Shown: positions 24,261-41,568 of the stretch, in pieces
How positions within the stretch are numbered: the first letter of the stretch is position 1
Layout of the letters: each line of letters begins with the position of its first letter
Assembly: GCA_027366525.1 (NCBI GenBank)
Contig: DAHXKG010000005.1
Location: 2,575-66,574, forward strand
Direction of reading: 5' to 3'
Source of the DNA: a candidate division FCPU426 bacterium
Lineage (GTDB): Bacteria; Oederibacteriota; Muellerivitia; Muellerivitales; DAHXKG01
Length of the DNA stretch: 64,000 nucleotides
Program-made: the position numbers and the translations under genes
The notes under the pieces: generated by a model
Told to the model about the DNA's origin: nothing
Database searches by the model: none
What the model saw: the letters and a program-made list of their open reading frames with translations, nothing else

Positions 24261-27200
24261 ATGTTACGAAAAAAAAACAAACAACAGAAAAAAAAGCTTC
24301 TGTATGACTTCCAAGTTGAACTCGAAACGATCAATACGGAAACGGTGGTTGCTCGGGCTCTGCTTTTGCCAGGGTGTCAAGCTCAGGGAAAAAATGAACG
24401 TGAAGCGCTTGATCGTTTAAAAAGTGCCATTGAACTTTATCTTTTAGAATCAAAATCGTTTAGTTTTCGAAGCATTGAAGAGTTTCAGGATATTCCCATT
24501 ATCTATGCCTTGGTGGAATTCCGGGGATTTTTATTTGCCGCAACGAATCGGGATATGATTCTTAAATCCAAAAATACGTTTTTAGGATCTTGGATTCGAG
24601 TCGAACTAACTCAATCTCCCTCTAAATTTTTTAATCCTCACCGAACCGGTAAAAGTGATGCAGAAGGGGATTATGTTACTCAAATTTATACCTTGGGTAA
24701 ATTTTCTCCAGTGGGCAAACCTTTGCATCTCTATGCTGGAACCAATTTGAATGGGACAGCTTATCAAACAGAGGATGGAGAAAAGTGGGAAGAGGCTTTT
24801 TGTACCAACGAGGACCGCATTCATTGCTTGGTTCCATTTCGAGGAAAATTATATATTGGAACCAGTTCACAAGGAAAAATTTATGCATTTGATGGTTCAG
24901 TTTTAAAGCCAGCGGGAAGTTTAAATGAAACAGCCATAACGTGTATGGCTATCTATCACCAACAACTTTATATCGGAACTTATTCAAATGGGAATATTTA
25001 TGCCTCGCCGGATGGCCATGTTTGGAAATTGGTTGCTTCAACTGAGCAAACGTTTATTCAATGTTTGAAAGAATACCAAGGGGATCTTTATGCTGGAACT
25101 TCAAGTACGAAAGGCGTGGGTATTTTTAAGACGTCGAATGGCAAGGATTGGATGAAAGTTTATGAAAATCCTCAATTTCTCAATATCTATTCCATGGAAG
25201 TCTTTGGAAATGCGCTTTATGTGGGTTTAGGAAGTTCAAGTCGAATTCTAAGAACGGAAGATGGCATGAATTGGCAAACTGTTTATGCAGCGGATGAAGA
25301 AGGTGTAAGAGCATTTTGCCAGTTTGATGATTATCTATATGCAACGACGGAATTAAAAGGGAAGATCATCCGTTCAACTTTTGATAGCGGGTCGATTCCA
25401 GAAATTCGCGATGTTCAGATCGATGTTCAATCATCCAGTGAAGTGATTATTACCTGGAATACGAATATTCCGTCGACCTCCACCATTTATTATCGCGAGA
25501 AAAAAGAAAAAGAACCCGTTTATGATTTTGAATGGAAAATCAATCAATTGGATCGTGTGGAAAAACATGAAATGCGGATTTCAAATTTGAAAGCAGATCA
25601 GGAATATGAATGTCAGCTTATCAGCGCTAATCGGGAATCATCGGTCTCTAGCAAGATGGGTTTGAATTTCAAAACGAAACCCATTTTTCCGCCTCAAATT
25701 TCATCAACCACCCACCCTTCAAACCAGTGGAGTAATCAATCAAAAGCGGTATTCCAATTGGAATTTCCAGACGGGATTCAAGAATGTTGCTATTGCTTCA
25801 ATCAAAGCCCGGATGTTCTTTGGGATCAAATTGAATCCTTAATGACATCTGAAAAAACATTGGTTTTTGACACACCCCTGCAGGGAGTTTGGTATTTGCA
25901 TGTAATGGGTGTTGATGGCATCGGAAATCGAGGAGTTCAGACAACAGCGTATCGGTTTCAAGTCGATCTGGAAGCTTGGCCCCCGAGTGATGTTTCCTCA
26001 CCCACGCATCCAAATGCTCAGCAGTGGATTTCCAATGATAAACCCGTAATTCAATGGGTGCCTCCGGAAGATTTTTCAGGTATTAAAGGGTATTATTTAA
26101 AAGTTGATCAACTTGAATATACGATTCCGACCTCTGAAACAGGCGAATGGACAGAATCCAATTGTGTATCGCTGGGCTCCTTAGCAGATGGGATTTGGTA
26201 TGCGCATGTGATTACGGAAGATCAATCAGGCAATTTGGGAAATACCGCAGCTCATTTTCAATTTAAAATTGATACCCACGTATCGGCACCTGAAATTATT
26301 TCCATGACCCATCCAAGTAGCGATGTGTGGTATGCATCAAATCAAGTACAATTTCAGTGGCTGGAACCTCAAGATTTTTCAGGCATTGCCAAATATTATT
26401 ATCAATTTGATTCTGATTCTGAAAGTGAGGTGATTCCAAACCAGGAAAACGCCATAACGAAAAACCATTTTGAAATGAAAGACATTTCAGATGGTTTTTG
26501 GTATTTTCATTTGCGATCCCAAGATCAAGCTGGGAATATTTCCAAAACGACCAGTCATTTTAAAGTTTGTATTGATACATATGCTGCATCGCCAGTCATT
26601 ACTTCTCGGTCTCATCCACAGTCTCTGCACTGGAGTAATCAACCGCAAGCTGTTTTTCAATGGGAAGCGCCAACCGATGATTCAGGCGTTAAAGGATATT
26701 TCTTTATTTTGGATCAAAATTCAAAAACTCGACCCGATGAAAAAACAGGTATATGGACTGAACAACGTGAGTTGTCGATTCAAGTCATGGAAGATGGAAT
26801 ATGGTTTTTTCACTTGGTGATGAAAGACGCGGCAGGCAATCTCAGTGAACCAGATCATTATGAACTTCGAGTGGATACGCAAATTGCTCAACCTCAAATT
26901 CAATCGACCAGTCATCCCGATGAAAATAAATGGTACACGGTAACTCAAGCTGTTTTTCAATTGATTCCGCCGCCCGATTTATCGGGTATTGTTGGATTTT
27001 ATTACCAATTGGATACATCATCTGAAAATTTTGATGTGGATCAATCTAGTTTTTCAGAAGCTCCCAAAATTCAAATTCCCATTCAAGAAGAGGGTATTTA
27101 TTTTCTAAAAGTAGTTTGTAGGGATGCAGCTGGCAATAGGGGAAGCGTTCCCGCGTTATACCGAATCCAGTCTGATTTGAGAGTTCTTACTCCAATACTC

Positions 27201-29837
27201 CATTCGCCAAGTCATCCGGATCCTCAAAAATGGTATCGGTCTAAAAGCGTTCAAATCGTGATAGATGCTCCACCCGATTTATCAGGCATTTGGGGATATT
27301 ATGTCAAATTTGATCAAAATGAAGCTTATGAGTTTAATGAGACCCAAATGGAGTTTGTTCAGAAATCGGATTTTGAAATTGAGGTTTCAGGTGAAGGGAT
27401 TGGATTTATTCATGTTGTGGCACGCGATCAAGCGGGGAATATCAGCTCTGTCATTCACTTTAAAGTTCAAATTGCAATGGAAATTCTGCCACCTCAAGTT
27501 AAAAGTCCAACCCATCCGTTAGAACACTGGTCGAATCATCAATCGCCTATTTTCCAGTGGGAACCCCAAACTTCTTTATCAGAAGTTGAAGGATATTATT
27601 TTTTTATTGATTCTCAAGAAACAACGATACCTCAACCGGATCAAGCTCAATGGACAACAGAACTGCAATACAAATCGAATCCCTTACCGGAAGGGAAACA
27701 TTATTTCCATATTATTGCGAAGGATCGTGTGGGGAATCTAAGCATAAAAGCTTCCCACTATCCTATTTGGATCGATATTACGCCCCCTCATTCTAAAATG
27801 AATCCATTATCTCTATTTTCCAATCAATCCGAAATTCAGGTTTCTTGGGAAGCTGAAGATCCCTTCAGTGGTGTTGTGAATTATGATATCCAAGTAAAAG
27901 AAGGAATGAATGGAGTATGGCGAGATTGGTTAACGACCACGACTCAAACTTCTAGTACTTATTTGGCAGAATCTGGGAAAAAAACATTTTTCCGATGTCG
28001 TGCCCGAGATGGTGTCGGCAATGTCGGTGAATTTTCAAGTCAAGAAATCATTTCAACCACAGTGGATCTGACTCCACCTCCACCAGTGATTGAATTAAAG
28101 GCCACAGCACAACCATTAGGAAAAATTTTACTTCAATTTACTCCGGTTACTGATGAAATTTCAGGTACCGCTTTTTATCGAATTTATCGCTGGACACAAG
28201 TAGAAAACGATAAAAAACTTATTTCAACAGATGGTATGAATGTGCCAGAATATCTCGATTCGGATGAACAACTTAAGGATGGAACGACTTATTTTTATTG
28301 TGTTCAACCCGTGGATCATGTCGGGAATGAACAAATACAAGGCAACGCAACGGCGTCGGCAATTTCAGATCATTATGCTTTAACACCAATTGTGACAAGC
28401 ACAACGCATGTTTTGGGGGCTTGGAGTTCTAATCCGGTGGTGACCTTAAACTGGATGCCAGTTTTGGATGCATCAGGTATTTATGGATACTACTATATTT
28501 TAGATCAAAATGCGCAGACGGTAGTAGATCCAAAGAAAGCGCAATTTACAAAAGATCTAACATTTACAATGGGACCGCTGAAAAGTGGGCAATGGTTTTT
28601 TCATTTAATCATGCAAGATCGTGCCGGAAATTTAAGTCCTATAGCTCATAGTTGTATCAAGATTGATTCAGATCAACCGCAATCTCCGACCATTGTCTGC
28701 CTGACTCATCCAAACTCAAATCAGTGGTACACCAATGCTTCAGTTGAGTTTGAAATCATTCTTCCTGAAAAGCTTTCAGGCTGGGATGGTTATTATTATG
28801 TTTGGACACAAGAGAGCCGCACAGAATTGAATTCTCAAAATTCTACACGAAGTATTGAAAAGAAGTTAACGTTGAATATGGATAAAATTGGGAAATGGTA
28901 TTTGAAAATCATGGGACGAGATTTGGCAGGGAATTTTTCTAATGCTGTTCAATATGAAGTAAGCTACTCAGGACATTTTGGATCTCCTCCATCTATTTTT
29001 TGTTCAACGCATCCTCGGGAATCTAAGATTGAAACCAATAATTCTCCAGTGTTTATTTGGGAAGATAAGAAAACGGATCATTGGGTACCTTCAGGCTATG
29101 TATATAAGTTGAGCAAAAATGAATCTGAAATATTATCTATGCAGGATTCTTTCACTAAGGAAAAAACCATTAAATTTGAATCCTTGGAAGATGGCGTCTG
29201 GTTTTTCCATTTATCAACTGTGGATCAAAATGGAACTTTAAGTCCTTTGATTGCTAAGAAAAAAATAAGCATCCAACAAGCGATTTCTATTTCTGGAAAA
29301 TTTTTGTCTAAAAATGGTGTTCAGGGTATAGCTGGCATTCGCATAGAATGGTTACAGAATGACAAAGTGATAGGTACGATTGAAACGAATGCTAACGGGG
29401 AATTTTCTATTTTATTAACCTCTTCAGGAAAGCACGATTTGAAATTTTATGAACCCAATTTTCCGGTACTATGGTTAAAGAATATATTGATCACATTGGA
29501 TTCAATTACTGATCAATGGGTATTTTCAGAAGATCTTGGAATTTTTCCTGCTGTAGTGGATTCTGGTCCGGTTCAATTTTACTATTTTCTAAAAGAAGAT
29601 TGCAATGTGGTGATTGAAGTTTTTGATTCGAAAGGTGTTTTAATTCATAAATTAGAAGAGAAAAAATCCGGTGGATGTTATAACTATTCTATTTGGGATG
29701 CGAGTCCTTATACTACAGGTGAATATCTTTATAAATTGACAGCCAAAAGTATTTTAAAGGGATCGATGTCGAGGTTTAATATTAAAAAGTTTAAAATTAA
29801 TAAAAAACAAAAAATGATGATTGAAGCAATGAAGTGA
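24261..29837 (+). CDS. giant (1,858 aa) multi-domain repeat protein: HicB-like N-terminus, beta-propeller, FN3, ~12 tandem ~100-aa repeats, CarbopepD-like domain, FlgD-Ig/T9SS-like C-terminal domain
   Basis: Single uninterrupted frame. N-terminal 70 aa match HicB/UPF0150 antitoxin fold signature (LLLPGCQAQGKNEREALDRLKSAIELYL). Blades of GKLYIGTSS.G.IY...DG..W. Repeats with consensus S.THP....W.SN....FQWE.P.D.SG..GYYY..DQ...DG.W(F/Y)FH....D.AGNLS. C-terminal domain similar to those of the 37,777-52,357 proteins. No N-terminal signal peptide. Confidence 0.7.
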   Translation: MLRKKNKQQKKKLLYDFQVELETINTETVVARALLLPGCQAQGKNEREALDRLKSAIELYLLESKSFSFRSIEEFQDIPIIYALVEFRGFLFAATNRDMILKSKNTFLGSWIRVELTQSPSKFFNPHRTGKSDAEGDYVTQIYTLGKFSPVGKPLHLYAGTNLNGTAYQTEDGEKWEEAFCTNEDRIHCLVPFRGKLYIGTSSQGKIYAFDGSVLKPAGSLNETAITCMAIYHQQLYIGTYSNGNIYASPDGHVWKLVASTEQTFIQCLKEYQGDLYAGTSSTKGVGIFKTSNGKDWMKVYENPQFLNIYSMEVFGNALYVGLGSSSRILRTEDGMNWQTVYAADEEGVRAFCQFDDYLYATTELKGKIIRSTFDSGSIPEIRDVQIDVQSSSEVIITWNTNIPSTSTIYYREKKEKEPVYDFEWKINQLDRVEKHEMRISNLKADQEYECQLISANRESSVSSKMGLNFKTKPIFPPQISSTTHPSNQWSNQSKAVFQLEFPDGIQECCYCFNQSPDVLWDQIESLMTSEKTLVFDTPLQGVWYLHVMGVDGIGNRGVQTTAYRFQVDLEAWPPSDVSSPTHPNAQQWISNDKPVIQWVPPEDFSGIKGYYLKVDQLEYTIPTSETGEWTESNCVSLGSLADGIWYAHVITEDQSGNLGNTAAHFQFKIDTHVSAPEIISMTHPSSDVWYASNQVQFQWLEPQDFSGIAKYYYQFDSDSESEVIPNQENAITKNHFEMKDISDGFWYFHLRSQDQAGNISKTTSHFKVCIDTYAASPVITSRSHPQSLHWSNQPQAVFQWEAPTDDSGVKGYFFILDQNSKTRPDEKTGIWTEQRELSIQVMEDGIWFFHLVMKDAAGNLSEPDHYELRVDTQIAQPQIQSTSHPDENKWYTVTQAVFQLIPPPDLSGIVGFYYQLDTSSENFDVDQSSFSEAPKIQIPIQEEGIYFLKVVCRDAAGNRGSVPALYRIQSDLRVLTPILHSPSHPDPQKWYRSKSVQIVIDAPPDLSGIWGYYVKFDQNEAYEFNETQMEFVQKSDFEIEVSGEGIGFIHVVARDQAGNISSVIHFKVQIAMEILPPQVKSPTHPLEHWSNHQSPIFQWEPQTSLSEVEGYYFFIDSQETTIPQPDQAQWTTELQYKSNPLPEGKHYFHIIAKDRVGNLSIKASHYPIWIDITPPHSKMNPLSLFSNQSEIQVSWEAEDPFSGVVNYDIQVKEGMNGVWRDWLTTTTQTSSTYLAESGKKTFFRCRARDGVGNVGEFSSQEIISTTVDLTPPPPVIELKATAQPLGKILLQFTPVTDEISGTAFYRIYRWTQVENDKKLISTDGMNVPEYLDSDEQLKDGTTYFYCVQPVDHVGNEQIQGNATASAISDHYALTPIVTSTTHVLGAWSSNPVVTLNWMPVLDASGIYGYYYILDQNAQTVVDPKKAQFTKDLTFTMGPLKSGQWFFHLIMQDRAGNLSPIAHSCIKIDSDQPQSPTIVCLTHPNSNQWYTNASVEFEIILPEKLSGWDGYYYVWTQESRTELNSQNSTRSIEKKLTLNMDKIGKWYLKIMGRDLAGNFSNAVQYEVSYSGHFGSPPSIFCSTHPRESKIETNNSPVFIWEDKKTDHWVPSGYVYKLSKNESEILSMQDSFTKEKTIKFESLEDGVWFFHLSTVDQNGTLSPLIAKKKISIQQAISISGKFLSKNGVQGIAGIRIEWLQNDKVIGTIETNANGEFSILLTSSGKHDLKFYEPNFPVLWLKNILITLDSITDQWVFSEDLGIFPAVVDSGPVQFYYFLKEDCNVVIEVFDSKGVLIHKLEEKKSGGCYNYSIWDASPYTTGEYLYKLTAKSILKGSMSRFNIKKFKINKKQKMMIEAMK

Positions 29838-29909: not shown

Positions 29910-29987
29910 GGGGTTGTAGCTCAGCTTGGTTAGAGCGCCTGCCTGTCACGCAGGAGGTCGCGGGTTCGAGCCCCGTCAACCCCGCCA
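29910..29987 (+). tRNA. tRNA-Asp (anticodon GTC), with encoded CCA
   Basis: GGGGTTG acceptor stem pairs with CAACCCC. D-loop AGCTCAGCTTGGTTAGAGC. Anticodon stem CCTGC/GCAGG with loop CTGTCAC. T-arm GGGTTCGAGCCCC. Discriminator G + CCA. Confidence 0.9.
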
Positions 29988-30350: not shown

Positions 30351-30971
30351 ATGAATACGGCGACCAAAGCAAAAACCTATGAAAGGGCCATCAAGGTCTT
30401 CAAGACCCATGGAGGGCTCCTGTCCTCGACAGAGGCCATTCAGGCGGGCATCCATCCAAGGGACCTTTACGCCATGAGGGATGCCAAACTGCTCGAACAG
30501 ATGAGCCGGGGGCTTTACCGCCTTTCGGATATGCCTTCCCTCGAAAACCCAGACCTTGTGACGGTAGCCAAGCGAGTGCCAAAGGGGGTCCTTTGCCTGA
30601 TCTCGGCTCTTGCCCTTCATGAGCTGACCACCCAAATACCCCATGAGGTTTATGTGGCGCTCAAGATGGGGGCGAGAATCCACCGGCTGGAAAACCTGCC
30701 TCTTCGGATTTTTCATTTTTCCGGTAAGGCTTTTACGGAAGGGATTGAGGAACGAAAGGTGGATGGGGTGGCCTTCCGGGTTTATTCCAAGGAAAAAACC
30801 CTAGCAGATTGTTTCAAATATCGGAATGTCGTTGGGATGGATACGGCGCTGGAGGCCCTCCGTAATTATTGGAAGAGCCGGGGGAAGAATATGGATAAGC
30901 TTACCCATTTTTCGAAAATCTGCCGTGTCGAAAACGTCATGCGGCCTTATTTGGAGACCATTCAAGAATGA
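30351..30971 (+). CDS. abiEi: AbiEi-family antitoxin (type IV TA / abortive infection)
   Basis: 206 aa. N-terminal winged-HTH pattern (YERAIKVFKTHGGLLSSTEAIQAGIHPRDLYAMRDAKLLEQMSRGLYRL) typical of AbiEi. ATGA-overlapped with downstream DUF1814 NTase gene. GC-rich relative to flanks. Confidence 0.75.
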   Translation: MNTATKAKTYERAIKVFKTHGGLLSSTEAIQAGIHPRDLYAMRDAKLLEQMSRGLYRLSDMPSLENPDLVTVAKRVPKGVLCLISALALHELTTQIPHEVYVALKMGARIHRLENLPLRIFHFSGKAFTEGIEERKVDGVAFRVYSKEKTLADCFKYRNVVGMDTALEALRNYWKSRGKNMDKLTHFSKICRVENVMRPYLETIQE

Positions 30972-31894
30972 AAAAACCCATCGTCAATATGGCGGCCTCG
31001 GTCCACCAGCGGCTCCTGAACATGGCCCAAAAGACAAAGCGGCCTTTCAATGAGCTACTTCAGTATTACGCCATGGAGAGATTTCTCTATCGCCTTTCCA
31101 AGTCCAAATATTCGAATAGCTTCATCCTGAAAGGGGCCCTTCTGTTCAAAGCCTGGGAAGTAGCCGATTCCAGGGCCACCATAGACATCGATCTTCTCGG
31201 AAGGTTGAAGAATGAAACGAAACATATTGCCCAAGTCGTAAAGGAGATTTGTTCCCGTGATGATGATCATGATGATGGTCTTCGTTTTGACCCTGCCACG
31301 GTAAAGGCTTCAAGAATCGTGGAGGGCGCGGATTATCATGGCGTCAGGGTGAAGTTTCGCGGCTACTTGGGCAATGCTCAAATACCCATGCAGATCGACA
31401 TAGGATTTGGGGACCTCATAATGGCTGGACCTATTCCGTTGGTATATCCCACACTCTTGGATCTTCCGGCGCCCCATCTCAAAGGCTACAGGCCGGAAAA
31501 CACGATTGCCGAAAAATTCGAGACCATGTGCAAGAGGGGAACGGCCAATAGCCGAATGAAGGACTTTTTCGATATTTGGCTTTTGGCTAGAAGGTTTAAC
31601 TTTGATGGGACCAAGCTGTCCAGGGCCATTAAGGAAACCTTTGAGAACCGCCACATGGAAATCCCAATGGAGCCCCTAGCTTTGAGCACAGATTTTTCGC
31701 GGGACAAGACTAAAGCAACACAATGGAAAGCTTTCGTGAAAAAGAGCCGGTTACCCCATGCGCCTTCCAGCTTTACCCTGATAGTAAAGGTGCTAAGAAG
31801 TTTTTTGGGACCGATTGCAAAGACCCTGAACGTGAAGAAGAACTTCACTGGAAGGTGGAAAGCATCAGGCCCCTGGAAGGGTTTAAAGAAATGA
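30968..31894 (+). CDS. abiEii: AbiEii/AbiGii-family nucleotidyltransferase toxin (DUF1814)
   Basis: 308 aa. N-terminus ASVHQRLLNMAQKTKRPFNELLQYYAMERFLYRLSKSKYSNSFILKGALLFKAWEVADSRATIDIDLLGR matches the DUF1814 NTase signature (GS...DxD). Confidence 0.8.
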   Translation: MKKPIVNMAASVHQRLLNMAQKTKRPFNELLQYYAMERFLYRLSKSKYSNSFILKGALLFKAWEVADSRATIDIDLLGRLKNETKHIAQVVKEICSRDDDHDDGLRFDPATVKASRIVEGADYHGVRVKFRGYLGNAQIPMQIDIGFGDLIMAGPIPLVYPTLLDLPAPHLKGYRPENTIAEKFETMCKRGTANSRMKDFFDIWLLARRFNFDGTKLSRAIKETFENRHMEIPMEPLALSTDFSRDKTKATQWKAFVKKSRLPHAPSSFTLIVKVLRSFLGPIAKTLNVKKNFTGRWKASGPWKGLKK

Positions 31895-32200
31895 GAAAAT
31901 CAAAAGAGTTCAGCCAAAGCCTTAAAGAAGGTCTTAAGTTTGCTCAAGGCAAGAAGGCGAAAGTTAAGGTTGAAAGACTTCTCGTAAAGCGCAAACCCTC
32001 CAAGCTGAAAAAGTAAATCTCTGATTTTGCGGGGAAAGCCTTCCCCCTGGCCTCGGCTACCTTCGGTGATCCTCGGCACACCCCCTTCTTCTGGGGCTTT
32101 GCCCCAAGCCCTTTAAATCATCTAAACCCAATGTAGAAATGACTTAAAGTTTGAATCTTTTTGTAATTAAAAAAGTCCTTGAATTTATAGGAAATTAGTA

Positions 32201-32218
32201 ATACGCTAATCAGCGGAT
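32201..32218 (+). promoter_or_regulatory. 18-nt motif ATACGCTAATCAGCGGAT upstream of the XRE gene (copy 1 of 2)
   Basis: Identical 18-mer recurs at 33329-33346 upstream of the DUF3892-like gene. Near-palindromic core CGCTAATCAGCG. Confidence 0.45.
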
Positions 32219-32238
32219 TTATAGAATCCTAGAAATAG

Positions 32239-32559
32239 GTGATAAAAATGACATTTGGAGAATTTGTAGCCACTAAGCGGAAGGAAAGGAAACTTACCCA
32301 GAAGGATTTGGCGGCGAAGATTTTGAAAGAAGACGGCAATGCCATAACGGCCCAATATCTCAATGATATTGAGCACGATAGGCGAAATCCCCCGGCTGGC
32401 CAGTTGCTTGAACAGTTTGCGAAAATGTTAGATATCCCGGTGGATGCTTTGTACGTCTTGGCTGGCAAAATGCCAGATAATCTTTTGAAAAGTAAAGATG
32501 TTGATGTTCAAAAACTTGAAGTCGCCTTTCAAGCGTTTAGAAAAAAACTTAAGGAATAA
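32239..32559 (+). CDS. XRE-family (HTH_3) transcriptional regulator
   Basis: 106 aa. FGEFVATKRKERKLTQKDLAAKI...AITAQYLNDIEHDRRNP helix-turn-helix pattern. Confidence 0.75.
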   Translation: MIKMTFGEFVATKRKERKLTQKDLAAKILKEDGNAITAQYLNDIEHDRRNPPAGQLLEQFAKMLDIPVDALYVLAGKMPDNLLKSKDVDVQKLEVAFQAFRKKLKE

Positions 32560-32561
32560 TT

Positions 32562-33281
32562 TTGAAATACGTTCGCGACATTTCGGGAATCCTAAGAACC
32601 AGACCTCACTTGCAACCTGTCGAAATCGACAGGAAGTGCGAGCAAATCATCCGCGAATTTATGGAGCTTGAATGCGGTGGGTTTGTTGTGCCAATTCCGA
32701 CCAGTGCTTTGACGCGGTTGATTGAACGTGATGCAGATGACCTGGATTTGTACGCTGATCTTTCAAAGGACGGCCAGGGCATTGATGGTGTAACCGATTT
32801 TGTGAAAGACAAGCGGCCACGGGTTAGGATTTCAAAGGAGCTTTCGGAGGCAAAAAACGAACATCGCTTACGTACGACCTTGACCCACGAATATGGGCAT
32901 GTGAAATTTCATGCTCCGTTGGTAGCCGCCGAGGCTCTCGATCAAGACCTATTTGGTCCTGGTGCCACGAAAACCCCGCATCACTGTAACAGGGAGCGTA
33001 TTTATTCAAAAAACACTTCAAATTGGATGGAATGGCAAGCTGGTTATGTTTGCGGGTCACTATTGATGCCGTTGACGATTTTCAAGGAGTTCGTTTTGGA
33101 ATTTTTTAAACGTGAAAATACCCACGCCCCTCTGAAAATTTGTACCCCGCTGGCAGAAAAACTTTTGGCAGAAATCTCTCAAAAGTTTCATGTTTCCAGG
33201 GACGCTGCCAAAGTGCGGCTTTTCTATGTTGGAAATGGGTCTTATCTGACGGATGGGGATCCCCACCCAACCATGCTTTAA
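32562..33281 (+). CDS. ImmA/IrrE-family metallopeptidase
   Basis: 239 aa. HEYGHVKFH HExxH zinc motif in the ImmA/IrrE position immediately downstream of an XRE regulator (3-nt gap). Confidence 0.7.
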   Translation: MKYVRDISGILRTRPHLQPVEIDRKCEQIIREFMELECGGFVVPIPTSALTRLIERDADDLDLYADLSKDGQGIDGVTDFVKDKRPRVRISKELSEAKNEHRLRTTLTHEYGHVKFHAPLVAAEALDQDLFGPGATKTPHHCNRERIYSKNTSNWMEWQAGYVCGSLLMPLTIFKEFVLEFFKRENTHAPLKICTPLAEKLLAEISQKFHVSRDAAKVRLFYVGNGSYLTDGDPHPTML

Positions 33282-33328
33282 TCTCCAAAATAATCGGTTC
33301 AAAACATTGACAAGAACAACCTTTCGTG

Positions 33329-33346
33329 ATACGCTAATCAGCGGAT
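33329..33346 (+). promoter_or_regulatory. 18-nt motif ATACGCTAATCAGCGGAT (copy 2 of 2), upstream of DUF3892-like gene
   Basis: Exact repeat of 32201-32218. Preceded by TTGACA at 33306-33311. Confidence 0.45.
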
Positions 33347-33399
33347 ACTCAAATAAGCTTATTTTTGTATAAAAAAATCAGCAGTGAAAGGAAAAGACG

Positions 33400-33687
33400 A
33401 TGGCAGAGCGAGTGGAAGTAAGTTGTATCGACAAGCGGGACCGTCAGAATCCGCATGAACGGATTCAGGCCATTGGCGGTGTGCATGGTGGCCAGCGATG
33501 GAAGATGTCGGAAGAGAATGCAATCCAGAGCATTAAGGCTGGAAAATACGATTTTTACGTTACTCGAGGCGGTCGGACCGTGGACGTGATTATCGACACC
33601 CACAGCGGGCGTGAATATCTGAAAACGGAAAATGACGGGTATAGCCCGGACAACCTTCTCAGTTTAGACGCATGCAGGGTAAATTAA
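33400..33687 (+). CDS. DUF3892-like small protein
   Basis: 95 aa. C-terminal pattern FYVTRGGRTVDVIIDTHSGREYLKTENDGYSPDNLLSLDAC resembles the DUF3892 signature (fyv..gG..v.V....g.kYLrT.aDg...dNLlsLp.C) recalled from memory. Needs HMM confirmation. Confidence 0.5.
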   Translation: MAERVEVSCIDKRDRQNPHERIQAIGGVHGGQRWKMSEENAIQSIKAGKYDFYVTRGGRTVDVIIDTHSGREYLKTENDGYSPDNLLSLDACRVN

Positions 33688-33735
33688 TGGGGACGGCCTG
33701 TCGGTGACGGCGGGTCGTTTTTTCAAAAAGACATA

Positions 33736-33984
33736 ATGAGGTGCACAATGCTCGTTTACTGTACTAATTGCAAAAAAGAACATGCTGACCCAGGTATGAA
33801 CCTCCCGTGGTCATCCTGTCGGTTCTGCGGCGGAAACCTGGTTCGATCTGCAGGAGTTGGTCGTCTTGCCGGTGCTGGTGCAGGGGCGGCGCTTGGATCC
33901 CTTGGGGGACCTTTCGGCGCCGTTGTTGGTGGCGTCCTGGGATTTTTCCTTGGAAATACTGCAGAAAAAAACATCAAGAGGTGA
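33736..33984 (+). CDS. zinc-ribbon + glycine-zipper small membrane protein
   Basis: 82 aa. CTNC...CRFCGG zinc ribbon, then GAGAGAALGSLGGPFGAVVGGVLGFFLGN glycine-zipper TM helix. AGGAG-like RBS. Stop 4 nt before the next start. Confidence 0.6.
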   Translation: MRCTMLVYCTNCKKEHADPGMNLPWSSCRFCGGNLVRSAGVGRLAGAGAGAALGSLGGPFGAVVGGVLGFFLGNTAEKNIKR

Positions 33985-33988
33985 TGTA

Positions 33989-34579
33989 ATGGTACATAAG
34001 GTATTTTTTAGTTTTCATTATGAGCGGGATAACTGGCGTGCCGGACAGGTGCGTAATAGTGGAATCACCAAGTCCGACGTCGAATCCGCCGGGTTCATCG
34101 ATGCAGTTGAGTGGGAGTCCATTCAACGCGAAGGTGACAAAGCTATCGAATCGTGGATCGAGAAGCAGATGGAAGGGACGGCGGTTACGGTAGTCCTGAT
34201 TGGGGCTCAAACGGCCAATCGGCGCTGGGTCTTGCACGAGATTAAGCGGAGTGCAGAAAAAGGCAATGGATTGCTTGGCATCTATATCCACAACGTCAAG
34301 GACATGGAGGGTAAAAAGGACTCCCAAGGGAAAAACCCATTTACAGAATGCGGTATCGAGGATGTTCCCATCTATGACTGGGCTGAAGACAACGGATACG
34401 AAAATTTCGGGAAATGGGTTGAAGCGGCATATCAGAAAGCTCTTCCGAAGGCAGGAAAAGCCGTTGGTGCTGGTGCAGGTGCCGCTATCGGTGCACCCTT
34501 TGGGCTCCTCGGAGTCGTTATAGGGGCGGCGGTTGGGTACCTTTTTGGAAATGAAGTCGATAAAGAAAGTAAGGGATAA
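33989..34579 (+). CDS. ThsB-like TIR-like domain protein (DUF1863/MTH538 type) with C-terminal glycine-zipper TM helix
   Basis: 196 aa from ATG 33989 (AAGAGGTGA RBS). The ORF-track upstream extension to 33857 is frame read-through of the previous gene. KVFFSFHYERD...VRN...TAVTVVLIGAQTANRRWVLHEIKRSAEKGNGLLGIYIHNVKD...GKNPF...YDWAEDNGYENFGKWV parallels Bacillus cereus Thoeris ThsB (RVFFSFHY...TSVTCVLIGSQTFNRRWVRYEI...GIHIN..KD...GPNPFD...YDWVADDGYNKF) as recalled from memory. Tail GAGAGAAIGAPFGLLGVVIGAAVGYLFGN. Confidence 0.7.
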   Translation: MVHKVFFSFHYERDNWRAGQVRNSGITKSDVESAGFIDAVEWESIQREGDKAIESWIEKQMEGTAVTVVLIGAQTANRRWVLHEIKRSAEKGNGLLGIYIHNVKDMEGKKDSQGKNPFTECGIEDVPIYDWAEDNGYENFGKWVEAAYQKALPKAGKAVGAGAGAAIGAPFGLLGVVIGAAVGYLFGNEVDKESKG

Positions 34580-34583
34580 TTAA

Positions 34584-35009
34584 ATGGGAAAAAAATTTAA
34601 ACACCTAGAGTTTATCCAGGCAATTATCAACCGAATGGCCGGCAACTCTTTCTTAATCAAAGGTTGGTCGGTAACGGTTCTTTCCCTTGTTACTGCATTC
34701 GTGCTAAATGATGGCGACCCTCGGTTGGTTCCTGTGGCTTACTTTCTTGTTCTGATGTTCTGGTTCCTTGATGCCTACTACCTAAAAATCGAAAAGAACT
34801 ATCGGGAACTATACAAGGCTGTCTGCAAAACCGAGGAGAAGGCTATCGATTTCAACCTCGCTTCCAATGGCTACTCCAAAAAAGCGGGTAGCTATGGAGC
34901 CGTTCTATTCTCCACCACCCTGCTTTTGTTCTACGGGGCGTTGATTGTTTTTGTCGTCGTTGTTCATCTTATGACGGGAGTGTGTCATGGCACGTCGTGT
35001 ATTTTTTAG
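34584..35009 (+). CDS. small 3-TM membrane protein (candidate effector; possibly SLATT-like)
   Basis: 141 aa. TM segments [56 protein letters not shown]. 4-nt gap from upstream gene and 23-nt overlap with downstream gene. Confidence 0.55.
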   Translation: MGKKFKHLEFIQAIINRMAGNSFLIKGWSVTVLSLVTAFVLNDGDPRLVPVAYFLVLMFWFLDAYYLKIEKNYRELYKAVCKTEEKAIDFNLASNGYSKKAGSYGAVLFSTTLLLFYGALIVFVVVVHLMTGVCHGTSCIF

Positions 35010-35442
35010 TTTTGATTATGATCGGGACATTTGGCGGATTGGACAAATTCGAAATAGTGGTTTGACTAAACCGGACATTGAAACTGCTGGATTTGTTGAT
35101 TCTGCATCCTGGGAATCCGTCAAACGTCAGACCGATGAAGCAATCGCACGATGGATAAATAATCAGCTTAATGGAACTTCAGTTACTGTAATTCTTATTG
35201 AGGTGGAAACGGTTCAAAACAGGTGGGTAAAGTATGAAATAGACCAAAGTATTTTGAGGGGGAACGGATTGCTTGGAATTTATATCCACAATGTTAAGAG
35301 CGCTTTAACTGGGCAAACCGATTATCAAGGTAAAAATCCTTTCGATGCTTTTGTGCTCACTTCAACCAATTTACCCCTCTCTCGCTATTACTACACGTAT
35401 GACTGGGTTATGAATGACGGATACAACAATTTTCCTGCTTGA
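34987..35442 (+). CDS. second ThsB-like TIR-like domain protein (DUF1863/MTH538 type), soluble
   Basis: 151 aa. RVFFSFDYDRDIWRIGQIRNSGLTK...TSVTVILIEVETVQNRWVKYEIDQSILRGNGLLGIYIHNVK...GKNPFD...YDWVMNDGYNNF. Paralogous to 33989-34579 but lacks the TM tail. Confidence 0.7.
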   Translation: MARRVFFSFDYDRDIWRIGQIRNSGLTKPDIETAGFVDSASWESVKRQTDEAIARWINNQLNGTSVTVILIEVETVQNRWVKYEIDQSILRGNGLLGIYIHNVKSALTGQTDYQGKNPFDAFVLTSTNLPLSRYYYTYDWVMNDGYNNFPA

Positions 35443-35786
35443 GGGGAACTTGCGGCTCAACGAGCAGGTAAATAATAAATCGTCCCTTTAATAATTCCCC
35501 TAAGAAACATCCTGAAACTCATTTAGATGGTTTTCTTCATTTCCGAGCGGCCTTAGCCACCAGTGGATCATTGAAATCTTTCAAATTTCACAACGCCGGG
35601 TCTGTCAAGTGATGGGTTTATCGAGAAATATATATCGGTATGCGCCTCCGGGTCGCTCGGAGGAACCGTCTTTGATAGCTCGAATGATCGAACCGGCATG
35701 TCTGTATGGACGCTATGCCCCATATGTCAGGATAGATGTCGCTTTTAGAGATATACTTCTCACGGGGTCAAAAAGGAAAAGGACCG

Positions 35787-36242
35787 ATGGAACAGTTCAA
35801 ATATTCAGAAGAATTCAAAAAGACAGCCGTTCAAAAGTTGTTGAATCGAGGTTCTCGTTTAGCGGAAGAAATCAGCAAGGAGCCAGGGGTTGCTTTGAGT
35901 ACCTTGCACCGGTGGAAGACGGAGCTAGGCTACAAGGGAGAAATTAAAAGTACGAGTCCAAGGCCACAAGATAGAAATCCTGAAGAAATGCTGAGATTAT
36001 TGATTGAATTTGAAAAAACACCTGAAGAAAAGAGGGGTTAGTTTTTGCGCATGAAAGGTTTACACACGCAAGAGATCGAGAACTGGCGAAACCAAATCAA
36101 AATGGCTTTAGGTCCAGGTGGTAAGAGGGTCGTGGATCGCAATGAACAAGTTAAAAATCGACTCCGGATTAAGGAACTGGAGAGGGATTTCGTGCGCAAG
36201 GACAAAGCTTTGGCCGAGGCCACCGCGCTTTTGATTCTTTAA
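35787..36242 (+). pseudogene. IS3-family transposase OrfA, interrupted by in-frame stop at 36039-36041
   Basis: HTH N-terminus and leucine-zipper-like C-terminus (KELERDFVRKDKALAEATALL) lie in the same frame separated by TAG. Confidence 0.6.
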
Positions 36243-36370
36243 AAAAAGCCGAATTGATTTGGGGAATCGAGGAGAACGAGTGAGCGCTGCCGATAGGACT
36301 CAGACCCAAGAGTTGATCGACGAAGCGGTTCGGGGGGGCCCATCAAGACAAAGCGGCTCACTAACTGGGC

Positions 36371-37189
36371 GTGTCGGTGAGAACTTTACAACGTTGGAAA
36401 TTTCAACTGGAAAATGGGCGAAAAGGCCCCCAAACACCACCCTCCAATGCGCTGAGCTTACAAGAGCGCGCTCATGTGTTGTCAGTGGCCAATAGCGCGG
36501 AATTTGCGGATCTGTCGCCGTGGCAAATCGTGCCGCGTCTTGCCGATCGTGGAGAATATCTGGCAAGTGAATCAAGCTTTTATCGGATTCTGAAAGCTGC
36601 CAATTGTTTGGCTCCTAGGTCAAGATCCAAGCCCAAGCAGCGTCAAAAACCAGAGGCGCTGATAGCTGTCAGACCCAATCAGGTTTGGAGCTGGGATATT
36701 ACCTATTTGAAGACTCGAATCCAGGGAATGTTCTTTTATCTTTACTTGCCCATGGATATTTTTTCTCGAAAGATTGTTTATTGGGAAGTGCATGAAAGTG
36801 AAAGCGCTGAACTGGCCAGTGGAATGATGGCCAAGGCCTGTGAAGTGCAGACGATCGAACCTGGTCAAATCAAACTCCATTCGGATAATGGAGGCCCGAT
36901 GAAGGGGGCGACAATGCTGGCAACGCTTCAGCGTTTAGGGGTTGCACCGTCCTTTAGCCGCCCGAGTGTGTCAAACGACAATCCTTATTTAGAGTCGTTT
37001 TTCAAAACACTGAAGTATTGCCCGAGTTATCCGACAAATGGTTGTTTTGATAGTATCGAAGTGACACGGGAGTGGGTTGAAAAATTCGTTTATTGGTATA
37101 ACCACGTACATTTACACAGTGGCATTAACTGGGTGACACCCGATTCCCGTCACGAGAACCGTGATCAAGCCATCTTAAAAAAACCGTGA
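36371..37189 (+). pseudogene. IS3-family transposase OrfB (DDE integrase core), frameshifted at both ends
   Basis: rve core motifs present. N-terminal part lies in a different frame (36259-36495). C-terminal tail shifts frame after 37189. Confidence 0.6.
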
Positions 37190-37545
37190 AAAGGTTTACA
37201 AGACGGCCCAGAGCCAAAAGCCCAACCGATGGTCTCGATCAACGCGCGATTGGTCACGTCTAGGTGCCGTGGAATTAAATCCGGGTGGGAGTTCACAAAA
37301 AATTCAAAAAGAAGTTACTGAAGCTGCTTGAAAATTTAGGCGACATCTTTCTTGAAATTTTCGGGTAGCGTCCTATATGAACAAAGAAGATGTTGACAGA
37401 GCAATCAAGAACAGTAAAATTTTATATGGATATCTCTTCATTACTACGAAGCTGTGGGTTTAGAGTTTCGGTTACAAAAAACCAAAGTCACCCTGGAACG
37501 ATCTCTTAAGAGTTTATACTTGGAATACCTAGATCTTTATCGGAT

Positions 37546-37776: not shown

Positions 37777-40700
37777 TTATTGAAGAATAATAAGTTTAGT
37801 GATGAACCGACCGGATGAAGTATTCACGACTAAATAATAGAGTCCATTGGCTAAAGGTACATGACTTATATCCAAAGGCGTAATCCGAATGATCGACGCG
37901 CCACTTGGGAAAGAACCAAAATCTTGACTGAATATCTTTCGGAATGCGGTTGTGAATATCTGTATCGTTAAGGAATTAACAGACTGGGGTAAAGAAATTT
38001 GTACTTGAAGTGGACCATCACCAAGATATGGATTTGGAAATGGAAGTGCAGACAAATGCTGGATCACAGGTGTGGGGCTTAAGGCATTTTGGAGGATGGG
38101 AGTTGGACTTAAAATGGGTGTCGGTGTGCTGGTTGATGTAAATATGGGAGTCATTGTTTGCGTGGGTGATGTTGTTAAGGTGGGTGTGAAGGTATTTATT
38201 TTAGTAAATGTTGGAGTTGGAGTCAAAGTATAGGTTGGTGTGGAAGTAGTAGTCAAGGTTGGGCTCCATGTAGGAGTGGGTGATAAGGTCAAGGTTACAG
38301 TTGGTGTGGGGGTTGTTGTATCGGTGAATGTGGGCGTAAAGGTAGTCGTATCTGTGGGGGTTAAAGTCAAAGTGTCAGTAGGAAACGGAGTTGATGTTAA
38401 GGTAGGTGAAAATGTCGAGGTTAGGGTAGGGGTGGTTGTCCAAGTCGGTGTTGACGTTTGAGTTGGAGATGAAGTGATGGTTGGAGTTAACGTTGAAGTT
38501 ATTGTCCAAGTCGAGGTTGGGGTAGCTGTAAAAGTATTTGTGGGTGAAGAAGTCGGGGTTGAAGTAGGCGTGGAAGTGAGCGTGGGAGTATAGGTTAAGG
38601 TGGGGGTTGGAGTCTGAGTGGGAGACGGAGTGGATGTTTCGGTTGAAGTAAAAGTGGCCGTTGAAGTCGGCGTCATGGTAGAAGAAGGCGTAGTGGTAGG
38701 CGTGCACTGAATATTATCGTTGACAATTTCAATTCCAGTCACTTCCGCATTATCCTTGGTAGGAACTTCTAAGATATCAATGAGTTGATTGGTTACGGGA
38801 ACGACAAAACTTCGATTATAGGCGGCATATTGTCCAACTTCGGCATAAATATCTAAATTGGTAATGACAGTAACGCCGTTGATCATGACGCTAAAAATCC
38901 GATCATTGGAAGCCGTCCAATATTGCTCCACGAATCGAAGATTAACGGTATAGGTCCCATTGGTGGGAACGGTAAATTTATATTCAACTGGATTGCCGTA
39001 TCGTTCTGTTTGATAAATCGTTGGATTTTTGGTTCCGGAGATTGCATTGGTGATAGTGGCAGCTTGAGTATTGGTTCCTACATAGCCAAACCCACCCGTA
39101 GTATAAGCCTGATCGGGAGACCACGTTCGTCCGAGATTGTCGATATAACCAGTTGTTCCACCTAAACCACAATCAATTCGGATCATGGATTGAGCACAAG
39201 GATTTTCAGTGGGTGTAGGAGTGGGTGGAGGGGTTGGGGTGTTGGTGGGTGTAGGGGTGCACGTGTAGGGAGCACAAGGATTAGGAGCAGTATCATAAGC
39301 TTCTTTTACGGCCCATACGGTATTGGCACGCATATAATAATGTGCACGAACATTTTGAACACCTGAAGTCCAAGCTTCGGGTGTTCGAAACCAAAGTTGG
39401 GCGGTATTCCAAATGGTGTTATAAAGGCTATAGCCAATTTGAGTCGCTTGCGTATTCATGCCAAGTTGGATCATGCCAGCTACAACGCCCCAGGCGGTTC
39501 CCACCCAAGCTTCTTGTGTTTGTGAGGACGAGGTATCAATCGCACCTGCGGCGGTCATGACATTAACCACGCCGTCAGCTCCATTATCAAAAAGTTTATA
39601 GTTATTGTTATAAATCGTTTGAAAAGCACTGATGGCATCGGCGGTAGGAACAATGCTAGGGAGTCCGCAGGCTTCCGCATACCATTCGCCGCATAATTGA
39701 TCATCCATAATACGGGTATCGGCTGGTGGCGTATTCGTTGTACTGTAGTCAATATCATAATAGGTGTTGTTCCACAAGAGCGACTGATAACTGGCTTGTC
39801 CGGTATTAAACCAGCTGGTATAGGATGTGGCAGTGGTTGTATTCCCTTCGGCCGTTGCAATTTGTTCTGCCGCTTCACAGGCGGCGAGAAAGAGTCCACC
39901 ACAGTAAGCGGTATCGCCGGTGAGCGACATGTTGTCGTAGGTTTGATCAACTCCCGAGCTAATTGGAAGTCCGGTGGCATCACATTGACTATGGACTTTA
40001 TTCATAGCGACTTGAACAGCCGGCCAGCAATAATTAAGAAAAGCCGTGTCGGTTTTTCCTGTAATTTCCCAATCCCGGTAAACCATGAGGACAAATTTGG
40101 AATTCAAATCTTTCCAAGTTGTGGTATCGCGATAGGTATAAGCATTCCATTGAGTAAAGCAAGTATTGAGGTCACCCAAATCATGAGCGCAGGTTCCAAT
40201 AGCAGCCGGATAGAAACTTTGAGAGTTAATTAAGCTATTGCTAAATTCTTTTACACATTGTTTATCCAAATTAGGCCAAAGCATAATTAAGGGCCAAGAA
40301 CTATAAAATCGTACATCCGAGGTTTCATAGTAGGGATAAATATAACTTTCCAAATGAGCAAACATATCATCACTGGGATTGGTGTTGGTGGGTTGACCTG
40401 AAGCACCACCGGCTTCCCACATGGTTCCGCTGGTAAAAAGTTCATAGAGTTCATTGAATAAATCGGTTTTTAACCAATCCGGATAAAGTCCATTATTTAG
40501 AATTTGATTCTGCCAGGTTGTGATGGAGGTGTCCCAAGTGGGGTAGTTATTAAGCGCATCATTGGCAATGGCCCACGAATTGCGTCCAGTTTGTCCATAA
40601 TACCGAGTATATTCTCGGTACCATAAATCCCCGGTCCCGCCATCAGCGGCAGCAGGTTCCGCTAACGGAATATCCCAAGACAAAACGATGGGCACCACAA

Positions 40701-41568
40701 TGGATTGCCCAGCTGATAGAGTGGTGGTAAAGGCAATGCCCCCGATAGCATTATTCCCAACGGTATTGTTGAGCTGTCCGGTACTGATAAATTGACTTTG
40801 AAGAGTTTGAATTGTAGTCGCTGATTGGTATGTGATGGTTACCGAGGTACTGGATTGACTGGCTAAACAGAACTCACCTTGAGTTTGATCAGTGGCATTT
40901 CCCGTTCCAGTGCGTGTTAAGATCAGGCCCACGTTGTTATTGACTTGGGTAACGGCAGCTACGCCACCTCCAAAGGTATTGTCCCAAGTGAGCATAACGG
41001 ATACGGTAGTTGGCAGAGAGGTGGGATTGCTGATGGCCCATTTATAAATAGCAACCGGATAAGAGGAACGTTGATAATCATTGGGAATGATCGGACTAAA
41101 TTGTGTGACTGTGGCAGGACATGAAAAAAGATTGCCAGTGTAAGTAACCCATGCTTTGGGGAACAGAGCATAATAAGTGGCTTGACCTGTGCCTAGCGTA
41201 GCCCCATTAAGTTTTTCAGCTGTGGGAGTTCCTCCTTGAGGTTGTTCAAACAAATAAAAATCACAATTGGTATCAACGGTTTGATTATTACTTCCAATAT
41301 TTAATCGACCCAGATAAAAATCACCACTGTACATCCAAGTGATTGTGCCTGCTCCAAATCCACCGATGGGGGCTCCATCATCGTAACCACTGGAACCAAC
41401 ATCTCGACTCCAAGCTTGGGAGGGAATGACTTGAGCATGGAGGCGACTTGCGATTAATCCTGAAAGAATTAATAATAAAAAAATAATTTGAATACGAGCT
41501 GGAATTGAAAAAATTTTTTTTATTGTCATTATTTTAATTTTATCATAAAGCAGAAAATTCAAAGACAA
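37777..41568 (-). CDS. secreted glycoside hydrolase-like protein (GH116/GBA2-like (alpha/alpha)6 candidate) + malectin carbohydrate-binding domain + Thr/Pro linker + C-terminal sorting domain
   Basis: 1,263 aa. Signal peptide (IFLLLILSGLIASRLHAQ). Malectin signature (IRIDCGLGG...W..D..Y...IYQTERYG...YTVNLRFVEQ...RIFSVMINGVTVITNLDIYAEVG). ~210-aa TPT/STP linker. C-terminal ~90 aa similar to the C-terminal domains of neighbouring genes. GH family assignment is tentative. Confidence 0.6.
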   Translation of the reverse strand: MSLNFLLYDKIKIMTIKKIFSIPARIQIIFLLLILSGLIASRLHAQVIPSQAWSRDVGSSGYDDGAPIGGFGAGTITWMYSGDFYLGRLNIGSNNQTVDTNCDFYLFEQPQGGTPTAEKLNGATLGTGQATYYALFPKAWVTYTGNLFSCPATVTQFSPIIPNDYQRSSYPVAIYKWAISNPTSLPTTVSVMLTWDNTFGGGVAAVTQVNNNVGLILTRTGTGNATDQTQGEFCLASQSSTSVTITYQSATTIQTLQSQFISTGQLNNTVGNNAIGGIAFTTTLSAGQSIVVPIVLSWDIPLAEPAAADGGTGDLWYREYTRYYGQTGRNSWAIANDALNNYPTWDTSITTWQNQILNNGLYPDWLKTDLFNELYELFTSGTMWEAGGASGQPTNTNPSDDMFAHLESYIYPYYETSDVRFYSSWPLIMLWPNLDKQCVKEFSNSLINSQSFYPAAIGTCAHDLGDLNTCFTQWNAYTYRDTTTWKDLNSKFVLMVYRDWEITGKTDTAFLNYCWPAVQVAMNKVHSQCDATGLPISSGVDQTYDNMSLTGDTAYCGGLFLAACEAAEQIATAEGNTTTATSYTSWFNTGQASYQSLLWNNTYYDIDYSTTNTPPADTRIMDDQLCGEWYAEACGLPSIVPTADAISAFQTIYNNNYKLFDNGADGVVNVMTAAGAIDTSSSQTQEAWVGTAWGVVAGMIQLGMNTQATQIGYSLYNTIWNTAQLWFRTPEAWTSGVQNVRAHYYMRANTVWAVKEAYDTAPNPCAPYTCTPTPTNTPTPPPTPTPTENPCAQSMIRIDCGLGGTTGYIDNLGRTWSPDQAYTTGGFGYVGTNTQAATITNAISGTKNPTIYQTERYGNPVEYKFTVPTNGTYTVNLRFVEQYWTASNDRIFSVMINGVTVITNLDIYAEVGQYAAYNRSFVVPVTNQLIDILEVPTKDNAEVTGIEIVNDNIQCTPTTTPSSTMTPTSTATFTSTETSTPSPTQTPTPTLTYTPTLTSTPTSTPTSSPTNTFTATPTSTWTITSTLTPTITSSPTQTSTPTWTTTPTLTSTFSPTLTSTPFPTDTLTLTPTDTTTFTPTFTDTTTPTPTVTLTLSPTPTWSPTLTTTSTPTYTLTPTPTFTKINTFTPTLTTSPTQTMTPIFTSTSTPTPILSPTPILQNALSPTPVIQHLSALPFPNPYLGDGPLQVQISLPQSVNSLTIQIFTTAFRKIFSQDFGSFPSGASIIRITPLDISHVPLANGLYYLVVNTSSGRFITKLIILQ
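38075..38705. repeat. low-complexity Thr/Pro/Ser-codon tandem repeat (linker-coding) within 37777-41568
   Basis: Reiterated ACN-CCN codon units. Generates spurious ORFs on other frames (38240-38461, 38375-38707). Confidence 0.8.

Follow-up and report, generated by a model that had tools for sequence, protein, structure and literature searches.

A likely ThsF-family effector of a type V Thoeris system between two ThsB-type TIR genes in a candidate division FCPU426 genome

Type V Thoeris was described in December 2025 as the combination of a ThsB TIR protein with an effector of three transmembrane (TM) helices, which was labelled DUF2270 and renamed ThsF (Yirmiya et al., bioRxiv 10.64898/2025.12.03.692087). 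Two type V systems were reported to defend, those of Bacillus thuringiensis DAR 81934 and Bacillus sp. 1NLA3E, and the B. thuringiensis system protected Bacillus subtilis from phage. The B. thuringiensis TIR, expressed alone, made 3'cADPR upon infection. Added 3'cADPR was toxic to cells carrying the B. thuringiensis system, a toxicity measured with the whole system present and not with ThsF alone, and the sponge Tad1 lowered the defence. AlphaFold3 predicted that ThsF forms a homo-heptameric channel with positively charged pockets between protomers. The same preprint assigns the SLATT effector ThsH, which also pairs with TIRs, to type VII Thoeris, a type separate from that of ThsF (bioRxiv 10.64898/2025.12.03.692087). 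SLATT effectors, namely ThsH and those of CBASS, are likewise small, helical, TIR-paired membrane proteins, and their presumed action is to oligomerise and breach the membrane once a nucleotide signal is bound.

The other closely related description is the PADLOC-DB v2 entry PDC-M50, in which component A is a small membrane protein and component B a ThsB-like TIR. To our knowledge, PDC-M50 had been a purely computational candidate with no assigned mechanism, and the literature that we searched held no mention of it. The effector family itself is not new: PADLOC listed it as a candidate in 2023, and in 2025 it was named ThsF of type V Thoeris. Here we analyse a locus in which both PDC-M50 components were matched.

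The three-TM protein and its family

The window, by which we mean the whole stretch of DNA analysed, comprises 64,000 nucleotides from a candidate division FCPU426 bacterium (GCA_027366525.1, contig DAHXKG010000005.1, positions 2,575 to 66,574). The gene under study lies among the following:

33736-33984, + strand: Zn-ribbon and glycine-zipper membrane protein, 82 aa, its stop 4 nt before thsB1 (Gly-zipper_Omp 3.5e-05; weak Zn-ribbon matches)
33989-34579, + strand: thsB1, a ThsB-type TIR (residues 1-150) with a C-terminal glycine-zipper membrane segment (~155-190)
34584-35009, + strand: thsF-like gene, 141 aa, ATG start, TAG stop; predicted type V Thoeris effector of the PADLOC PDC-M50A family
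34987-35442, + strand: thsB2, a ThsB-type TIR, 151 aa

A preliminary description of this DNA had reported the 141-aa ORF, its position between two TIR-like genes and its 23-nt overlap with the downstream gene (start 34987), and all of these were confirmed. Because the Zn-ribbon/glycine-zipper gene, thsB1, thsF and thsB2 follow one another at distances of 4 nt, 4 nt and -23 nt, the arrangement is operon-like. A promoter and terminator scan of positions 32000-35800 gave nothing informative.

ORF 34584-35009 is a real gene, far beyond chance, because 460 homologues were found with E values down to 1e-75. Nearly all of them are 130-140 aa long and named 'hypothetical protein', and a precomputed Pfam domain was recorded for none of the 120 homologues listed. 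The identical protein in public annotation (P0001, GCA_021800745.1) is given as 124 aa and starts at Met18, which drops 17 residues (window positions 34584-34634), including the near-invariant K4, H7, L8, Q12, I15 and R17. The ATG at 34584 is supported because both profile and pairwise homology begin at residues 2-4.

The PADLOC model PDC-M50A matched the protein over residues 2-130 (E 1.2e-44), and PDC-M50B matched the genes on both sides (3.5e-61 upstream, 3e-56 downstream). Between the B. thuringiensis DAR 81934 ThsF (141 aa) and the window protein, identity is 37% across residues 4-134 (E 3e-33), and the former also matches PDC-M50A (E 1.8e-48). This ThsF was reached from the validated ThsB sequence in Table S1 of the preprint (bioRxiv 10.64898/2025.12.03.692087), which is 100% identical to a database protein (P0121) whose next gene downstream encodes 141 aa with no Pfam match recorded. 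The 37% identity and the shared PADLOC model make the window protein a ThsF homologue, and, judged by sequence, PDC-M50A and ThsF are one family. The two proteins share their length, three TM helices, full-length homology, the PDC-M50A match and a ThsB neighbour. In our assessment, the 141-aa protein is likely to belong to the ThsF family and to act as the effector in a type V Thoeris anti-phage system. The earlier proposal that it is the membrane effector of a TIR-based abortive-infection system is supported by the ThsF homology and by the matches to PDC-M50A and to PDC-M50B/ThsB. Membership is anchored here on one validated ThsF, that of B. thuringiensis, which at 37% identity is the nearest validated one. 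For the other validated system, that of Bacillus sp. 1NLA3E, a search with its TIR domain sequence returned no match.

Kyte-Doolittle hydropathy, computed with a window of 19 residues, revealed three hydrophobic segments at residues ~22-41 (peak 1.88), 48-67 (1.67) and 103-141 (up to 2.54). An AlphaFold2 monomer model built with 21 homologues as input (mean pLDDT 87.8, pTM 0.77) placed helices at residues 3-43, 46-82, 95-101, 104-108 and 111-136, in agreement with the hydropathy peaks and with the three TM helices first proposed. The positive-inside rule would place the N-terminus and the loop of residues 68-104 in the cytoplasm, and the NDGDPR turn and the C-terminus would face outward. The cytosolic N-terminus of the preliminary description therefore stands at the level of prediction, but it is not short: its ~22-27 residues form an amphipathic helix that is the family's most conserved region. 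Similarly, the K/E-rich loop, put at ~45 aa, measures ~37-40 residues (68-104).

Across 82 ThsF-family sequences, Q12, F23, W28, F59 and E70 are invariant. Conservation of at least 90% was found in the N-terminal part for K4, H7, L8, I15, R17, N21, K26 and G27, and in the remainder for A38, W60, L62, D63, L67, R74, Y77, D89, F90, S110 and T112. Nearly all conserved residues, K, R and H included, are predicted to face the cytoplasm or to sit where the membrane meets it.

Pfam, NCBIfam and PHROGs yielded no named family for the three-TM protein, the only PHROGs match being phrog_19896, an entry of unknown function. The preliminary description had found no confident named family, which is correct for Pfam, but the family can be named as ThsF or PDC-M50A. 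It had also held that homology to a housekeeping membrane family would speak against an effector; no such family matches. Weak similarity to DUF3278 was seen in 42 of the 82 family members (best E 4.9e-05), none of which reaches the Pfam gathering score; the window protein scored 16.3 bits (E 0.011) against a cut-off of 26.6 bits. DUF2270 was weakly similar to 19 of the 82 (best E 0.0013) and 8xMP to six (best E 0.0092), in each case again below the gathering score; almost the whole of the B. thuringiensis ThsF aligned with 8xMP, at E 0.012. In HMMER, PF10028 (DUF2270) matched neither the window protein nor the B. thuringiensis ThsF at E ≤ 10, so the 'DUF2270' label of the preprint appears loose, reflecting perhaps weak similarity or a more sensitive method. 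Any relation of ThsF to DUF3278, DUF2270 and 8xMP, all of them Pfam families of small membrane proteins without known function, would be at most at the superfamily level, and a literature search on '8xMP' found nothing relevant. A Foldseek search of the PDB returned nothing significant (best E 1.1, all generic helical bundles), and a profile search of PDB sequences gave no match at E ≤ 10.

The family is widespread. At least 537 species-representative genomes, from many bacterial phyla and a few archaeal MAGs, encode a ThsF relative, as do 143 plasmids, including conjugative plasmids of Klebsiella and E. coli. A partial match (residues 7-77, 39% identity) was found in three Vibrio cyclitrophicus phage-like elements (PQ189363.1, PQ189372.1 and PQ189378.1, each ~14.35 kb), which fits the presence of defence genes on satellites and mobile elements.

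Flanking TIR genes and conserved neighbourhood

The ThsF-like gene is flanked by two ThsB_TIR genes that both retain the catalytic Glu. Besides PDC-M50B, thsB1 matched Pfam ThsB_TIR (2.7e-26), Gly-zipper 2TM (0.0025) and PADLOC ThsB (6.9e-62). Its E84 is the equivalent of E85 in BcThsB, and this catalytic Glu is invariant in the alignment. Likewise, thsB2 matched Pfam ThsB_TIR (6.5e-22) and keeps Glu at the position of BcThsB E85. The window TIRs are 48-60% identical to the TIRs listed in Table S1 as 'DUF2270 - Type V', thsB1 reaching 60% with one of them; ThsB1 is 46% identical to the type I Bacillus cereus ThsB domain. The locus differs from the validated one in its TIRs: the B. thuringiensis type V TIR has 252 aa with an N-terminal extension, whereas the window holds two short DUF1863/ThsB-type TIRs on either side of the effector, one with a glycine-zipper membrane tail and the other lacking its C-terminal end.

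The truncation lies at a TGA where homologues of thsB2 have a conserved Trp (35440-35475), and the last ~11 residues are absent. The frame reads NNFPA-stop-GELAAQRAGK-stop, where homologues read ...NMGAWIEAAARTAGR. The ten codons past the TGA (GELAAQRAGK, then a stop) remain in frame and match the C-terminus of the homologues (WIEAAARTAGR). The difference is a TGG-to-TGA nonsense change, with loss of the last helix. Reading of TGA as Trp under an alternative genetic code was ruled out, as 14 of the 30 longest ORFs in the window stop with TGA. Truncation by the downstream IS3-like element was also ruled out, since the lost codons persist in frame and the candidate end of the element lies ~275 nt downstream.

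The same TGA is present in a second assembly, whose contig L087 (GCA_021800745.1, JAJYYS010000001.1; 900-950) carries thsF-thsB2 at 99.2% DNA identity. This contig departs from the window sequence immediately before the thsF start, at ~17 consecutive G. A mobile two-gene thsF-thsB2 cassette, suggested by this breakpoint, was dropped as a candidate because poly-G junctions are typical of sequencing or assembly artefacts; the junction is probably not real but a chimera formed at poly-G in sequencing or assembly.

The membrane tail of thsB1 resembles that of the 82-aa Zn-ribbon protein (39% over 31 aa, E 0.009). Such a tail is rare on ThsB: among the 150 best representatives, a TM tail was seen in no more than a handful, including one fragment with the same glycine zipper and one protein (P0325) that combines a TIR, a TM segment and a Zn-ribbon within a single chain. 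None of 15 metagenomic relatives of thsB1 covers the tail. The Zn-ribbon/glycine-zipper gene is probably co-transcribed with thsB1, and its membership of the Thoeris system is uncertain; no homologue of its product was found in 80 related loci.

The pairing of ThsF with TIR genes is conserved across phyla. A ThsB-type gene lies directly downstream on the same strand in 52 of 79 loci from other species, at distances of -58 to +26 nt. With all TIR classes counted, a TIR gene immediately adjoins the ThsF homologue in ~66 of the 79, and TIRs stand on both sides, as in the window, in 16. Pfam TIR_2 was found in 19 upstream neighbours. In the reverse test, starting from thsB1, a ThsF homologue lies alongside in seven of the ~9 metagenomic relatives with enough flanking sequence. 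Plasmid copies of ThsF adjoin genes annotated as TIR-domain proteins, and on plasmids of Priestia, Klebsiella and Vibrio the neighbours are homologues of the type V ThsB. For type V ThsB relatives on a B. cereus and a second Priestia plasmid, no small membrane neighbour is annotated in the PLSDB gene tables, which are incomplete.

Three loci (L015, L017 and L065) hold the ThsF homologue in a larger cassette with at least one TIR, a ~410-aa protein and a ~220-260-aa protein with a 'SASVP' motif. A Pfam SLOG cluster3 match was seen in one upstream and one downstream neighbour in the locus set. These cassettes and neighbours suggest hybrid systems with more than one effector.

The surrounding defence island

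The setting is a defence or mobile island, which extends from a tRNA-Asp gene and AbiE genes to an IS3-like element:

29910-29987: tRNA-Asp, start of the island
30351-30971: AbiEi antitoxin
30968-31894: AbiEii nucleotidyltransferase toxin
32239-32559, + strand: HTH (XRE-type) gene (Pfam HTH_3 8.3e-08; PADLOC capH 0.0021, weak)
32562-33281, + strand: M78/IrrE-like peptidase gene (Peptidase_M78 2.1e-06; PADLOC capP 3.4e-08)
33400-33687: DUF3892 protein, 95 aa, between the peptidase and Zn-ribbon genes (E 1.5e-16; also phrog_8224)
35736-37189: IS3-family-like transposase in two frames (orfA 35736-36041, orfB 36371-37189)

The HTH and M78 peptidase genes are possibly a CapH/CapP-like pair, damage-responsive regulators of adjacent defence genes, and their position alone suggests a link to the Thoeris genes. 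Homologues of this pair were not found in the 80 related loci, nor was the DUF3892 gene found in the related loci. Candidate terminal inverted repeats of the IS3-like element lie at 35724-35742 and 37340-37358 and are 84% complementary. The island is flanked by two large ORFs, one of 1858 aa on the + strand (24261-29837) and one of 1263 aa on the - strand (37777-41568), the latter with a long Pro/Thr-rich repeat region. Both look like surface or secreted proteins.

Proposed mechanism and alternative readings

Under the ThsF reading, one or both of the adjacent ThsB TIRs would detect the infecting phage and make a cyclic ADP-ribose-type signal from NAD+. This signal is 3'cADPR in the only validated system where the molecule that the effector responds to is known. 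The signal would bind the cytoplasmic face of ThsF, formed by the N-terminal amphipathic helix (K4, H7, R17, N21, K26 and W28) and by the helix extending from TM2 (D63, E70, R74 and Y77). A ThsF homo-oligomer would then open or disrupt the membrane, and the infected cell would be stopped, by abortive infection or growth arrest, before phage progeny are released. The defence against phage, the dependence on 3'cADPR and the channel of seven protomers are carried over here from the preprint's work on a 37%-identical protein, and the window copy itself may be active. Of the two type V systems that defend, one did not become toxic with 3'cADPR (bioRxiv 10.64898/2025.12.03.692087), so the signal of the window system may differ.

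The glycine zippers raise a variant of this scheme, in which the Zn-ribbon/glycine-zipper protein, ThsB1, ThsF and ThsB2 would form a membrane-assembled type V system, with a TIR tethered beside the effector through the shared zipper. We regard this arrangement as rather doubtful; if it were true, local signalling or direct gating of ThsF would be possible instead of a freely diffusing signal.

The same features could also belong to a system in which the TIRs are themselves NAD+-depleting effectors and the three-TM protein is a membrane sensor or anchor that switches them on by contact, with no diffusible signal. The glycine-zipper segment of thsB1 would place a TIR beside the three-TM protein, the tight spacing of the genes (4-nt gaps, a 23-nt overlap) points to co-translation and to assembly into a complex, and the preprint itself cautions that the TIR of an unverified configuration may be the effector and act by depleting NAD+ (bioRxiv 10.64898/2025.12.03.692087). 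However, the validated homologous TIR makes 3'cADPR on its own, 3'cADPR is toxic to system-bearing cells, and Tad1 reduces the defence; moreover, the membrane tail on ThsB is rare (a handful of the 150 representatives, none of the 15 metagenomic relatives). We consider this reading unlikely as a whole, including its further element that the three-TM protein detects phage-induced changes of the envelope or membrane. A decaying, non-functional remnant, in which the three-TM gene was kept by chance, would account for the premature TGA in thsB2 and for the IS3-like transposase immediately downstream (35736-37189), and, given the truncation and an element ~275 nt away, the locus might indeed be decaying. 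Yet thsF and thsB1 are undamaged and lack none of the conserved residues, the identical thsF-thsB2 pair occurs in another assembly, and ThsB2 loses only its last ~11 residues and retains the catalytic Glu, all of which makes a remnant very unlikely.

The preliminary description had suggested a likeness to the SLATT family or to the two-TM effectors of CBASS or type II Thoeris, and a pore former of either kind would resemble the window protein in size, in helical membrane architecture and in its association with TIRs, SLATT pairing with TIRs in type VII Thoeris. Both assignments were rejected. SLATT models did not match the window protein at E ≤ 10, the list of 25 families for the 82 members includes none of them, and the conserved N-terminal helix differs from that of SLATT effectors. 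The type II effector combines TM helices with a His-ADPR-binding Macro domain; the window protein shows none and at 141 aa leaves no room for one, and its TM helices number three and not two. Together with the direct homology to ThsF, which the preprint separates from the SLATT effector ThsH, these results leave such a pore former very improbable. All of these alternatives are less well supported than the reading of the protein as ThsF.

As the likely ThsF of a type V locus, a previously unnamed, mis-started hypothetical gene is placed in a defined immune system, and the value of the present finding is mainly one of annotation. The window locus would be a natural variant of type V Thoeris, with two short ThsBs of which one is membrane-tethered. 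Since the way in which ThsF works has so far only been modelled, diverse variants of this kind would be useful for work on its structure and signal specificity.
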